Positions 3,720 through 9,922 are shown, numbered from the stretch's first letter. The stretch is 64,000 nt of DNA from Candidatus Krumholzibacteriota bacterium (GCA_963764625.1 CAVXTH010000006.1:1085-65084), one strand, 5' to 3'. Translations and numbers: made by a program. Notes: generated by a model not told the origin, from the sequence alone.

Positions 3720-3795
3720 GCGCCGCTAGCTCAATTGGCAGAGCAACTGACTCTTAATCAGTAGGTTCAAGGTTCGATTCCTTGGCGGCGTACCA
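3720..3795 (+). tRNA. tRNA-Lys (anticodon CTT)
   Basis: 76-nt cloverleaf with 7-bp acceptor stem (G1-U72 wobble), D-arm gctc/gagc, anticodon loop cuCUUaa, T-loop ttcgatt and encoded CCA. Confidence 0.9.
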
Positions 3796-3996
3796 GATAA
3801 CTCCCACCGACAGAGAATCTTAGAGAACCGTTAAGGAAGGACCAACAGGTACGGTTGGTTCATTAGGTTACTCTGAGGTTACTCCTCGGCTCCTGGACCT
3901 TCAAGTTTCGATCCACTTCTACCCATCTTCAGGCTGTCCTTACCAAAAACTCCATCGGCCTTGCCTGACTTGAACTTACAGCGTCCGGGCTGCTAG

Positions 3997-5022
3997 GCTT
4001 TTTGGACGCTAAATCTGATCCTACACCTGCTTGCCACCGCATTTCGATCCCGCCGTTCGCTCATCCTGGAAAATATCGCCCTCCGCCATCAGCTTCAGGT
4101 CCTGGGTCGTCGGAAACAGCGTCCTCTCTTGAAGGACCGGGATCGAACCGTTTGGATTCTCCTGCGACGAATGTGGCCCGACTGGCGAGGCTCTCTGGTC
4201 ATGGTCCGGCCCGAAACAGTGATCGGATGGCATCGGCGGGGATTCCGAGCGTTCTGGGCACGAAAGAGCCGCAAAGGCCAGCAGGGTAGACCACAGCTCT
4301 GGCGCGAGACGCGCGAACTCATCCGGCAAATGGCTCACGACAACCCCACCTGGGGAGCGCCGCGGATTCATGGGGAACTGTTGAAGCTGGGAATCGAGCT
4401 CAGTCCCACCACCGTCGCCAAATACATGAAGCGAACCGGGCCACCATCTCAGAGCTGGAAGACCTTTCTCGAGAATCACGCCAAGGAAATCGTCTCGGTG
4501 GACTTCTTCACGGTTCCAACCATTACCTGCCGGGTTCTTTACGTCTTTCTGATGGTTCACAATGCTTCGCGGAGGATCGTGCACTTCAACGTTACGGATC
4601 ATCCGACAATGGACTGGGCCGCTCAGCAGCTTGTGGAGGCGTTTCCTTGGGATTCGGCTCCCAAGTATTTGCTACGCGATAACGACAAAATCTACGGTTG
4701 GGACTTCACTTCGCAGGTGGAGATACTGGGTATCGAGGACTGCTCGACCTCGTACCGCTCCCCCTGGCAGAATCCATAGATAGAGCGGCTGATAGGGTCG
4801 GTCCGCAGGGAGTGCCTCGATCGTGTGATCATCATGGGAGAGTGGCACTTGTGCCGAGTGATGCGCCAGTATGTCGAATACTACAATGGAAGCCGCACGC
4901 ACCTTGGACTGGCGAAGGACTGTCCGATCACGCGAGAGGTCGAGCCTCCAGATATTGGGCCGATCAGGCAGCGTCCCATGGTTGGCGGGTTGCATCACCG
5001 GTACCATCGGGAGGCAGCCTAA
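3997..5022 (+). mobile_element. degenerate insertion-sequence remnant (rve/DDE transposase family) adjacent to tRNA-Lys
   Basis: The open frame from 3997 encodes ...ILENIALRHQLQVLGRRKQRPLL...WGAPRIHGELLKLGIELSPTTVAKYM...SPWQNP*IERLIGSVRRECLDRV...YYNGSRTHLGL, i.e. HTH plus integrase-core motifs. There is no canonical start, and the frame holds an in-frame TAG. Confidence 0.6.
4021..5022 (+). pseudogene. DDE transposase (integrase core domain) pseudogene: in-frame TAG at 4777-4779 directly before the catalytic-Glu motif, no ATG start
   Basis: ORFs 4129..4779 and 4825..5022 are in the same frame, separated only by TAG. Homology is continuous across the stop. Confidence 0.65.
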
Positions 5023-5363
5023 GCGTGGATTCGAGGCCGGATGGAGTTAGTGGTAGCGACAGTTGCGGGGTTCTGGCGGACGGGGCCGGAATCTCTGTTT
5101 CGAGAGCGAGAGTTTGGGGGTCGGTGGGAACCGGTAGGGGTCACGATCGGACCCCGTTGGGTGGTCGAAAAACTCTCGGTTTCTCTGTTTTACGACCCTC
5201 TCGGATTTGACAGCGGGGTTCCGGGTGCGGCCCAGGTGTAACCCAGGCGGAGTGTGCCCAGTTTCGACGAAGACATGAAAGATAGCCATCGCATAGTTCG
5301 ATGAGGTATCGTAGACGCAATAGAATCGCGATTAAGATGTGTCCTTGATAGGAGAGAGGTACC

Positions 5364-6260
5364 TTGCGGATTCTTCAACATTTCAGTGCAAACCAGCTCA
5401 GGCTTTCTCCATTTCCTTTCCGGCGTGAGCTTTCGATGGAGTCATATCTTGTCGATAATCCTGATGTTCTGACTCTTGATGATGTGACCTACTGTGACCC
5501 GCAGATTCTCGATTCCGAATTCCATGTGAAAGGAGGGCGTGGAAGTCAGGGCGCTGACGGACGGATTGATATTCTCCTGAATTTCGGTGCTGAAACCATT
5601 GGCATCGCGGAACTGAAGCTCGGTGAACTACGGTCCGAGCACCTGGTCCAGCTTGAAGACTATTTGGCAGAAAAGGACCAGATTCTCCAAGGAGTCCCCG
5701 GGCTCAATGACCCAGATACGATTTCCGAACCAGGTTGGATCGGGTTGCTTGTTGGTGAGTCCATCTGCCCAGAACTATCCCTAAAATTGAGCCGAGGACA
5801 TCTGTCACCCGGAGGCATACCGGTTGCCGGCCTGACCCTGCGACGGTACATCTGCCCGCAGGGGAAAGACGTATATGTCGTCACCGATAGCTATTTCCCA
5901 ATGAAGACTCGTGATATGACGAAATACGAGTTCGACGGCAAGACCTATGGAAAAGGTCGATTGGTTCTTGCCGTTGTTAAGAAGCATGTCGAAAAGAACC
6001 CAGACTGTTCTTTTGCTGACCTAGAGGGACTCTTTCCGCCTTCTATTCAGGGAAGTCAGGGTGTCTTTACCAGTGAGGTTGGTGCCCGAGAGGTTTTTTC
6101 AAACTCAGGTAGAACGAGACACTTCTTGAAACCGGAAGAGATTGTGCAGCTCAGCGACGAGCGGATTGCTGTATGCAACCAGTGGGGTATTGGAAACATC
6201 GACAATTTCATTTCTGCGGCCGAAATCCACGGATATAGGATCGAAGTTGCGAGGTCGTGA
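5364..6260 (+). CDS. hypothetical protein with PD-(D/E)xK-type nuclease motif (restriction-endonuclease-like fold), unknown family
   Basis: Strong RBS ggagagagg precedes TTG 5364, with an alternative ATG at 5436 (MESYLV...). The motif DGRIDILLNF-x12-IGIAELKLGEL fits D...E-x-K. The gene sits in the low-GC island. Confidence 0.5.
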   Translation: MRILQHFSANQLRLSPFPFRRELSMESYLVDNPDVLTLDDVTYCDPQILDSEFHVKGGRGSQGADGRIDILLNFGAETIGIAELKLGELRSEHLVQLEDYLAEKDQILQGVPGLNDPDTISEPGWIGLLVGESICPELSLKLSRGHLSPGGIPVAGLTLRRYICPQGKDVYVVTDSYFPMKTRDMTKYEFDGKTYGKGRLVLAVVKKHVEKNPDCSFADLEGLFPPSIQGSQGVFTSEVGAREVFSNSGRTRHFLKPEEIVQLSDERIAVCNQWGIGNIDNFISAAEIHGYRIEVARS

Positions 6261-8246: not shown

Positions 8247-8282
8247 GGCAAGAGTCTCGAATTCGCCGGGATACGAGAATCC

Positions 8283-8897
8283 TCATCTGAACCCGATCGT
8301 ACGCTCCAAAGCGTTGTCCGTGCCGACCGTTGAAAATTCTTTAACGACTTCTTCTACTACAAGTGCATGCCCTACTTTGATGGTCTCCGCCATCATCATT
8401 CTTCTGCGCACGAACATCAAAGGTACCGCGTTCCTATAGCGGAGAAGAACGAGTACGCACAGCAGGCAGAAGAACAGGCGCCAGAGCGATCCTTGAGCGA
8501 ATATCGCCACCAACGCTTGGGAGGCTGCTGGACTGTAAGTGTCGAGGGGGATGCCATCTGCCCCCTGAGCCGTGGAATAGCCGCTGAAGATGATGGCCAG
8601 ACTTTGGGCCGCTTTCATCCCGACCACTAGCCCGAAGAGCCAGAGCGCGAGCTTGTTGGCCCGATACTCGTTGCTCAGGTGCCGCGGGAGAAGCTTGTCG
8701 AGCATTACCGAACCTCCAAAGTGGCCCTTTATCTCTCTTCGGGGACCGACGAGAGAGAGTTGAGGCTCGTTATCCGAAAACACCGCAAGCCAGATGTCGC
8801 TGATCAAAGGGACCATCAACGGCTGCGAAACAACCCTCACTGTGACACGACTATGCTCCAGCATGACCCTTGTTGCAAACCAGAACAGGTCCCCCAA
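8283..8897 (-). CDS. hypothetical membrane protein (start uncertain)
   Basis: ORF holds 3-4 hydrophobic helices (LALWLFGLVVGM..., LWRLFFCLLCVLVLL). No recognisable family. Lower-GC context. Confidence 0.3.
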   Translation of the reverse strand: MGDLFWFATRVMLEHSRVTVRVVSQPLMVPLISDIWLAVFSDNEPQLSLVGPRREIKGHFGGSVMLDKLLPRHLSNEYRANKLALWLFGLVVGMKAAQSLAIIFSGYSTAQGADGIPLDTYSPAASQALVAIFAQGSLWRLFFCLLCVLVLLRYRNAVPLMFVRRRMMMAETIKVGHALVVEEVVKEFSTVGTDNALERTIGFR

Positions 8898-8951
8898 GCC
8901 CCCCCAAGACCAGTCCGGTGCCAGGTTCTTGGTGTAGGGTAGTCAGACCTT

Positions 8952-9922
8952 CCGAGACACTTCAGCTGCTAGAATAGCGCACACTGAAGGAGGTCTCGAT
9001 ATGAACCAAGAAGTGAAGGACATACTGGAAGCCCGGCGCAGATTCATCGTCCTGGAGTTCGCGCTGAAGAGCGGCAACATCGCCAAGGAATGCCGTGAGT
9101 TCGAAGTGCCAAGGTCTTCATTCTACAGGTGGAAGAAAGCCTACGAGGCAGGCGGGAAAGACGCCCTGCTCCGTAAACGCCCCGTAGCAAAACGTCACCC
9201 GCGGCAAATCCCACCAGAGTACGTCGAGAAGATTCTCCACCTGAAATCGACCTACCATCTCGGGCCTCAACGGATCGCCTGGTATCTCGAGCGCTACCAT
9301 GACTTCAAGACCTCCTGTTCAAGCGTCTACCGCACGCTCAAGCGCAACGGCGCGGTCCCCTGCCGCGACATGTTGGCCGCCGTGCAATCCACACCCGCCG
9401 CTACGCCAAAAGGGTCCCTGGCCATCAGATCCAGGTAGACGTGAAGTTCCTGAATCTGAGAACAGAGGATGACCGTAAGATCCGCCGCTATCAATTCACG
9501 GCCATTGATGATGCCACTCGCGTCCGTGCTCTGAAGATCTACCAGAGACATAACCAGAAGAGCGCCATCGACTTCATCGATTACGTGGTCGAGAAGTTCC
9601 CCTTTCGGATCCCCACCGTCAGGACGGATCGCGGCCACGAGTGGCAGGCTCAGTTTCACTGGCACGTCGAGGACAAAGGCATGCGGCACGTGTACATCAA
9701 ACCACGGTCCCCACAGTTGAACGGCAAGGTTGAGAGGTCGCACAGGACAGACCAGGAGGAGTTCTACCAGCTCCTGACGTACACGGATGATGTGGATCTG
9801 AATGCAAAGCTGAGGGAGTGGGAGAAGTTCTACAACCTCAGCCGGCCTCACGGAGCTCACAACGGGAAGACACCTTACGAAGCCCTGAAACGTCTGTTAG
9901 AATAGCGGCAGACTTGTCTCGG
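8952..9922 (+). mobile_element. IS481-family-like insertion sequence (~970 bp) with short terminal inverted repeats
   Basis: CCGAGACA at 8952-8959 is an inverted match to TGTCTCGG at 9915-9922. These flank the transposase. The size fits IS481-like elements. Confidence 0.55.
9001..9905 (+). pseudogene. IS481-family transposase (HTH + rve DDE) split by a frameshift near 9355-9362 (CCCC run)
   Basis: ORF1 ends ...YRTLKRNGAV. The frame of ORF2 read upstream gives PLPRHVGRRAIHTRRYAKRVPGHQIQVDVKFL...YQFTAIDDATR, contiguous IS481 homology. A 1-nt shift is therefore required. Confidence 0.65.

Follow-up and report, generated by a model that had tools for sequence, protein, structure and literature searches.

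We describe a horizontally acquired islet that carries two adjacent, intact nuclease genes, here named ORF1 and ORF2 (ORF, open reading frame), directly 3′ of a tRNA-Lys gene in a 64,000-nucleotide stretch of DNA from Candidatus Krumholzibacteriota bacterium (GCA_963764625.1 CAVXTH010000006.1:1085-65084; hereafter, the window). ORF1 joins a PD-(D/E)xK nuclease domain of NucS fold to a widespread C-terminal domain (CTD), and ORF2 is a DUF2779 protein that combines a Cas4-like nuclease with a DEDDy exonuclease. The two families recur side by side in divergent lineages, and we tentatively propose, with a confidence that falls somewhat short of even, that ORF1 and ORF2 constitute a facultative endonuclease-plus-exonuclease cassette directed against invading DNA and operating with no methylase and no helicase. 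The folds of both proteins and the architecture of ORF2 are already known, and the CTD of ORF1 has been captured in PADLOC as a candidate; the repeated occurrence of the two families as a pair, the defense-island context of DUF2779 and the breadth of the CTD, with its immune-type fusions, are absent from the literature searched and appear to be new.

The islet was delimited by comparison with L165, a neighborhood on a 128-kb contig identified through a homologue 86% identical to the sigma-factor gene of the window (11538-12434). Blastn alignment of L165 against the window pairs window positions 1-452 with L165 6579-7030, 3564-3795 with 7263-7496 (90% identity) and 10973-13349 with 9085-11475, and long collinear matches run on to position ~23400 of the window. 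L165 also harbors a tRNA-Lys(CTT), located by ARAGORN at 7421-7496, and ~55 bp after this gene comes sequence that the window carries ~7.05 kb further on. Because the tRNA-Lys of L165 adjoins, after those ~55 bp, the sequence found at position 10848 of the window, the islet can be assigned a span from ~3796 to ~10840. The junction alignment places its left end at the CCA end of the tRNA-Lys, and both junctions are fuzzy by ~20-40 bp.

The composition of the region is equally distinctive. The drop in G+C noted by eye in an initial annotation of the window is confirmed, with a GC content of 0.49-0.55 across 5250-8500 and of 0.545 over 3796-11000 versus 0.623 for the remaining window, and a tetranucleotide-distance scan of the 64 kb, one of the checks then suggested, yields outliers only at 4001-11000, with a peak z of 3.6 at 5001-8000. 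At third codon positions the GC content (GC3) is 0.52 for ORF1, 0.61 for ORF2 and 0.75-0.80 for native genes. Horizontal acquisition 3′ of tRNA-Lys is thus established both by the vacant site in L165 and by the outlying composition. The initial annotation had argued for it from tRNA anchoring, atypical composition and flanking insertion sequences (IS); the first two arguments stand, and the empty site adds to them, whereas the third does not hold, as detailed below. The flanks were described at that time as housekeeping DNA; their genes are ordinary chromosomal ones, not classic housekeeping genes, and encode PKD/CarboxypepD_reg proteins, a CMD-family protein, an ECF sigma factor and Ser/Thr kinases. 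Table 1 collects the features of the locus, including the tRNA-Lys gene, for which ARAGORN and Rfam both agree with the annotated position.

Table 1. Features of the tRNA-Lys locus, with coordinates counted from the first nucleotide of the window
Feature	Position	Strand	Basis or remark
tRNA-Lys, anticodon CTT	3720-3795	+	ARAGORN; Rfam tRNA, 69.9 bits
Horizontally acquired islet, ~7.05 kb	~3796 to ~10840	none	Not in related contig L165; composition
Decayed DDE (rve) transposase gene	3997-5013	+	Translation; Pfam HTH_32/HTH_21/rve below cut-off
ORF1, 298 aa, N-terminal NucS-fold PD-(D/E)xK nuclease and CTD	5364-6260	+	Intact
ORF2, 645 aa, DUF2779 protein	6309-8246	+	Intact; Pfam PF11074
Small ORF, 2-3 hydrophobic helices	8283-8897	-	ORF list; Kyte-Doolittle segments aa 85-105, 128-163
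IS481-family transposase gene, one frameshift	9001-9905	+	ORFs 9001-9438 and 9441-9905; NCBIfam IS481 1.8e-20, 2.4e-42
ORF, probable secreted protein	9952-10659	+	Signal peptide MKIAISLAIALGSLLSFSTAFA; likely start 9982; GC3 0.61
Right junction	10848-10892	+	First 45 bp matching the L165 spacer again; 93% identity to L165 7552-7596

Both nuclease genes are full length and tightly linked on the same strand, as first annotated, and the calls then made from their sequences, a PD-(D/E)xK protein for ORF1 and a Cas4-like Fe-S nuclease fused to a DEDD/DUF2779-like domain for ORF2, are upheld by the analysis of their homologues. In ORF1, the nuclease domain (aa 1-182; nt 5364-5909) carries the motif D69...E83-x-K85, which is invariant among homologues, and the best structural match of the protein is NucS. 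The gene begins with a TTG codon that is preceded by a AGGAGAGAGG ribosome-binding site, and 30 homologues begin at the same residue. No family in Pfam, NCBIfam or PHROG matches ORF1, and a profile search against PDB sequences returned no significant match. Its 552 homologues at ~50% identity are spread over many phyla, and the closest of them is 55% identical.

The CTD of ORF1 (aa 183-298; nt 5910-6257) comprises ~115 aa and is represented in PADLOC by the candidate PDC-S57, positions 133-242 of which (out of 245) match ORF1 aa 180-294 at 4.9e-8. This match is confined to the CTD: the N-terminal 130 positions of the model are unmatched, and ORF1 does not match the model as a whole. The CTD corresponds to no Pfam family and to no solved fold; Foldseek against viral models gave no match, a profile search against PDB sequences gave noise only, and no modified-base reader fold could be recognized. 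A profile of the domain retrieves 2,085 clusters at 50% identity (E ≤ 1e-3). In the protein sample and the genome loci it is found fused to other PD-(D/E)xK domains (HSDR_N_2, NucS_C, PDDEXK_3/4 and Mrr_cat) and, elsewhere, to TIR_2/CAP12-TIR, KAP_NTPase, NACHT/NB-ARC/nSTAND5 and McrB-like AAA_5 domains. Partners of this sort would usually mark an immune sensor or a module for target recognition. The CTD also occurs in two to four tandem copies, at N-terminal positions and in proteins of at least 800 aa (P0249, P0250, P0289 and others).

ORF2 scores 78.9 bits against Pfam PF11074 over aa 372-521 (cut-off 23.3), and its C-terminal half alone scores 81.6 bits. The Cas4-like four-cysteine PD-(D/E)xK nuclease extends over aa ~1-295 (nt 6309-7193) and the DEDDy 3′-5′ exonuclease over aa 370-645 (nt 7416-8243). 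Across 40 homologues, the Cas4-type residues C19, C269, C272, C292 and D104...E117-V-K119 and the DEDDy residues D375-x-E377, D502 and Y626-x3-D630 are all invariant or nearly so. Both ORF2 motif regions produce weak matches to Cas4 in PADLOC (E ~0.006), and compact DUF2779 homologues match Pfam Cas_Cas4 (1.2e-4 to 0.057) and RNase_H_2. ORF2 itself has no Pfam Cas_Cas4 hit and lies below the threshold of every Cas4 model; on the NCBIfam UU173 model only its C-terminal 47 residues align, far below cut-off, and nothing significant emerged when its profile was searched against PDB sequences.

The architecture of ORF2 has precedents. DUF2779 was placed among the 3′-5′ exonucleases, and its fusion to DUF83 noted, by Majorek et al. 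2014 (PMC3985635), and a 2026 paper (PMC13621843) describes the DUF2779 member of JCVI-syn3.0 as a Cas4-like plus DEDD fusion, with its role given as unknown. The initial annotation, in stating that the gene pair matched no known system, was therefore too strong, given this published architecture and the match of the ORF1 CTD to PDC-S57. ORF2 shares with the known members (MMSYN1_0389 of JCVI-syn3.0; UU173 family) the same two-part build and the conserved D...ExK and D-E-D-Y-D residues (PMC3985635, PMC13621843). It differs from them in that it retains the full set of four Fe-S cysteines, of which the mycoplasma protein has only two, in being a long variant where extra sequence is inserted between the nuclease core and the C-x2-C motif, and in residing on a foreign islet, whereas the JCVI-syn3.0 gene is a core quasi-essential one.

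The closest relatives of ORF2 (77-82% identity) are solo genes that lie amid McrBC, GmrSD, ScoMcrA_N, a UDG-like gene and a DUF4011 helicase. Beside these relatives there is also an Aminotran_5 and DUF4007 pair, which we take to be SspA/SspB-like. Among more distant, long DUF2779 genes (L081-L160), the commonest neighbor is a WYL/WCX/HTH_11 regulator, accounting for 8 of 123 flanking genes, and this neighbor set hints that DUF2779 may be a regulated stress or defense gene. C5 DNA methylases, SbcC-like ATPases and DUF2130 are each present three times among the same 123 genes. DUF2779 homologues are found on 26 plasmids, one of which, a conjugative plasmid, carries the gene near H-NS, zincin-like peptidase and SOS-response-associated peptidase genes; no match to ORF2 was obtained in phage records.

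Several lines of evidence connect ORF1 and ORF2. The two genes are separated by a 48-bp gap, and a GAAGGGGTGGG ribosome-binding site precedes the ATG of ORF2. No terminator or promoter match in the ORF1-ORF2 region is better than those obtained in shuffled sequence, and since no better-than-chance terminator intervenes between the two genes, their co-transcription is likely. Eighty genome loci chosen through the ORF1 family were searched for the ORF2 family, and 80 metagenome loci chosen through the ORF2 family were searched for the ORF1 family, in both cases by tblastn and with hidden Markov models. DUF2779 is the one neighbor family to recur among the 37 loci with a full-length ORF1 (4/37: L004, L005, L029 and L122), and in one further locus (L065) a PDDEXK_4 nuclease with the same CTD is paired with a compact DUF2779 protein. 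The pair is thus present in five divergent lineages (the window, L004/L005 taken as one, L029, L122 and L065), invariably co-oriented and with gaps of 1-48 bp, and the DUF2779 partners of these lineages are 22-39% identical to each other. Four of the five DUF2779 genes found in loci seeded with the ORF1 domain are directly adjacent to the seed (placement test, p ~0.002; 0.017 with L004 and L005 merged). The association between the two families is therefore non-random but facultative. The initial annotation had named two outcomes that would contradict its proposal of a two-gene module, that the genes are never linked in other genomes and that both belong to housekeeping families conserved in synteny; neither was observed, and linkage extends to at least four lineages beyond the window. 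In the Burkholderiales metagenome-assembled genome among these lineages (L029), the DUF2779 gene is split into overlapping ORFs (7861-8604 and 8198-9985), reflecting either a frameshift or an assembly error.

In the scheme that we put forward, a foreign islet of ~7 kb inserted directly 3′ of tRNA-Lys(CTT), and its mobility genes have since decayed, leaving the two nuclease genes intact. The CTD of ORF1 would recognize a feature of the invading DNA or an invader-dependent cue, and the NucS-fold PD-(D/E)xK domain would then cut the DNA of the invader. ORF2 would degrade the resulting ends from both polarities, its Cas4-like Fe-S domain acting 5′-3′ and its DEDDy domain 3′-5′, and would thereby make the break irreparable without RecBCD or a helicase. 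The two genes would be facultative partners, each also occurring alone as a mobilome or defense-island gene. It is genomic context that suggests a role in defense, and the substrates, the polarity assigned to each exonuclease domain and the cooperation between ORF1 and ORF2 are likewise putative. If this scheme is correct, DUF2779, a large family whose architecture has been published, would gain its first testable role; the CTD, with ~2,000 clusters at 50% identity, no entry in Pfam and a habit of being swapped among TIR, STAND, McrB-like and restriction-nuclease effectors, would be flagged for study; and a minimal endonuclease-plus-exonuclease design would join the catalogue of defense systems. 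A bolder version, in which the CTD is a new and widespread invader-sensing or DNA-recognition module that forms, with the Cas4-DEDDy protein, an unrecognized two-nuclease defense system coupling cutting to two-polarity degradation with no helicase, ATPase or methylase, we regard as unlikely.

A number of observations weigh against the proposed cassette. The pair is infrequent, occurring in ~4 of 78 loci seeded with the ORF1 domain (~5%) and in 1 of 80 ORF2-seeded loci (~1%), and gene order differs among pairs, with both orders represented. ORF1 homologues have both housekeeping and defense genes as neighbors. The nearest relatives of ORF2 lack ORF1 and the nearest relative of ORF1 is only 55% identical, so the pair in the window was probably assembled locally and not inherited as an operon. 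PADLOC has no model for DUF2779 and holds PDC-S57 only as a candidate, which the literature searched does not mention. Finally, DUF2779 is quasi-essential in JCVI-syn3.0 (PMC13621843), and a transposon mutant of the M. bovis gene is listed among the genes disrupted in a cell-culture screen (PMC7373297); on account of both, DUF2779 can have a housekeeping role in nucleic-acid metabolism.

In a first alternative, ORF1 and ORF2 would be two independent single-gene nucleases of the mobilome or of defense that share an islet and do not cooperate, ORF1 being a self-contained sensor-nuclease comparable to other candidate single-gene systems and ORF2 a solo Cas4-DEDD nuclease. Most members of both families are indeed solo, the closest relatives of ORF2 stand alone in defense islands, the order of the genes varies, their GC3 values are unlike and ORF1 has no close relative. 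The S in PDC-S57, presumably a label for single-gene candidates, would fit as well. Against such independence, DUF2779 is the sole recurrent neighbor of ORF1-type genes, five divergent lineages have the two immediately side by side on the same strand, including one where a different nuclease subfamily bears the same CTD, and adjacency is favored over mere proximity (p ~0.002-0.02). We consider this explanation somewhat unlikely, and retain the facultative cassette as the preferred one.

The role of DUF2779 in JCVI-syn3.0 bears on a second alternative, that of a repair or recombination module belonging to the host or to the element, in which a NucS-like endonuclease makes or recognizes breaks or lesions and a two-polarity exonuclease resects them, in parallel to NucS/EndoMS action followed by end resection or to end processing of the AddB/RecB type. 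The structural match of ORF1 to NucS agrees with this possibility, as do the homology of Cas4 to RecB/AddB nuclease domains (PMC5704561), the match of the DEDD half of a DUF2779 protein to the repair exonuclease MrfB (PMC13621843), the quasi-essentiality just mentioned, the appearance of the M. bovis mutant in a screen table together with RecD, HolA and DnaB mutants, and the SbcC-like genes (3/123) flanking members of the ORF2 family. Orthology to NucS was ruled out for ORF1, which has neither the N-terminal NucS DNA-binding domain nor a Pfam NucS hit; its C-terminal domain is also different, and it is sporadic and horizontally transferred, whereas NucS/EndoMS is a lineage-wide repair gene. 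The CTD, moreover, is found in company with immune modules of the TIR, STAND and McrB-like kinds, and the cassette is foreign DNA not found in the close relative L165. The ORF list and Pfam searches disclose no helicase, recombinase or ligase partner in the islet. The absence of ORF2 from phages, in whose genomes ORF1 has a single partial match limited to the CTD, counts against a phage recombination module in particular. A repair or recombination function is accordingly quite unlikely in our assessment.

The facultative cassette can also be set beside known systems that employ related nucleases. With Cas4 and the nuclease domains of RecB/AddB, ORF2 shares a cysteine pattern (one N-terminal, three C-terminal) around a PD-(D/E)xK core, but differs from Cas4 in being fused to an exonuclease and not stand-alone, and from RecB and AddAB in lacking the helicase partner that these have. 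The context of a CRISPR Cas4 is not found here, with no match to a cas family among the islet ORFs scanned and no repeat array in the 64 kb. Compared with the type IV enzymes AspBHI/MspJI, Shedu SduA and Hachiman HamA, ORF1 has a putative recognition domain that is C-terminal and of unrecognized fold, being neither an SRA domain nor the DUF4263 N-terminal domain, nor a helicase partner. Restriction-modification of types I-III would involve a methyltransferase, and no such domain was detected by Pfam or NCBIfam in any islet ORF scanned; the nearest methyltransferase, of a generic class I SAM (S-adenosylmethionine)-dependent fold, is encoded outside the islet at 14239-15198 and is conserved in L165. 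The lack of helicase, methylase and integrase genes in the islet, noted in the initial annotation, is borne out by the ORF list, Pfam and NCBIfam. Long-A Argonautes, with which a co-encoded Cas4-family nuclease (ACE1) is reported to act against invading DNA (PMC12094033), offer an analogy. ORF1 and ORF2 might follow the same endonuclease-plus-exonuclease logic, with the differences that no Argonaute is present here, that the partner is a PD-(D/E)xK protein and that the Cas4-like ORF2 bears an additional DEDDy domain.

Mobility genes in the islet are decayed. The left transposase remnant has no start codon and contains an in-frame TAG at 4777-4779, as initially annotated, and its NCBIfam matches are below cut-off (IS481, 3.8e-18; IS3, 1.3e-14). 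The right-hand IS481-family gene has the single frameshift reported for it, near 9345-9440, with the second frame reaching back to 9345. The decay of both elements is hence as annotated, but they are not copies of one IS, since the two transposases are ~26% identical over their core at the amino acid level and belong to unrelated elements, nor do they bound the islet, whose limits are set by L165 and which is longer than the interval first annotated, also taking in the ORF for a probable secreted protein at 9952-10659. A composite transposon was ruled out on the same grounds, the islet also continuing for ~900 bp beyond the right-hand IS. The 3′ end of the left remnant and a position just inside the right junction are connected by an inverted repeat of 19 nt (4994-5012 / 10819-10837; 89% complementary); tblastn detected no transposase remnant at its right arm (10819-10837), and the repeat could be due to chance or be the last trace of an IS end.

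A classical integrase-type island was likewise rejected. The ORF list and Pfam reveal no integrase among the islet ORFs, and the direct repeat of the tRNA-Lys 3′ end that the initial annotation proposed as a mark of attR was not recovered, the last 23 nt of the tRNA having no copy within three mismatches anywhere in the window. The sole candidate is TGGCTGCAGACC at 10806-10817, ~25 bp inside the right junction, 9 of whose 12 positions agree with TGGCGGCGTACC, the 3′ end of the tRNA. This could represent a decayed attR, but agreement of this order can arise by chance (rough estimate, p ~0.02-0.05).

This state of decay invites the reading that the nuclease genes are inert cargo in a degenerating islet, neither expressed nor useful any more. 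Both IS genes are pseudogenes, integrase and clear att repeat are missing, and no sigma-70-like promoter is seen upstream, the latter being weak evidence in a host that is not a proteobacterium. Both nuclease ORFs, in contrast, are full length, preserve all the catalytic and cysteine residues that are invariant in their families and have good ribosome-binding sites, and 2.9 kb free of stop codons over two genes is not what would be anticipated under neutral decay when both neighboring transposases have been hit. Inert cargo is consequently very improbable.

The remaining ORFs of the islet have few recognizable features. The small ORF at 8283-8897, the true start of which may be internal, has no match in Pfam, PADLOC or PHROG, and the probable secreted protein has none in Pfam, PADLOC, NCBIfam or PHROGs and is not found in L165. 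No islet protein matches PHROGs, and an Rfam scan of the islet returned the tRNA only.

The tRNA-Lys site is variable beyond the islet itself. On its 5′ side, window positions 453-3563 (~3.1 kb) stand in place of ~230 bp in L165 (7030-7263) and encode two proteins with CarboxypepD_reg/PKD domains (594-1235 and 1235-3595). In its 3′ part, the longer gene shows unusually high GC (0.68-0.70) and GC skew (~0.3). On its 3′ side, L165 carries an S41 peptidase gene (7666-9063) between the tRNA-Lys spacer and the CMD gene, where the window has ~80 bp (10893-10972); this gene has no counterpart in the window. At least three independent gains or losses have therefore taken place at the site. Even if the defense reading is wrong, the locus still constitutes a cleanly delimited, tRNA-adjacent variable hotspot in an uncultured lineage. 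The gene content of the window, and a sigma factor of 65% identity labelled Candidatus Acidoferrum, would suggest an acidobacterial affinity.

Elsewhere in the window, two milder GC dips, at 46001-48000 (0.568) and 30001-32000 (0.585) versus ~0.62, are present, neither of which was flagged by the tetranucleotide scan. Three paralogous Ser/Thr kinase genes of ~900 aa, with PD40 or TPR C-terminal regions, are located on the minus strand at 15264-17984, 18042-20750 and 24812-27610; of these, the first two form a tandem that is conserved in L165.

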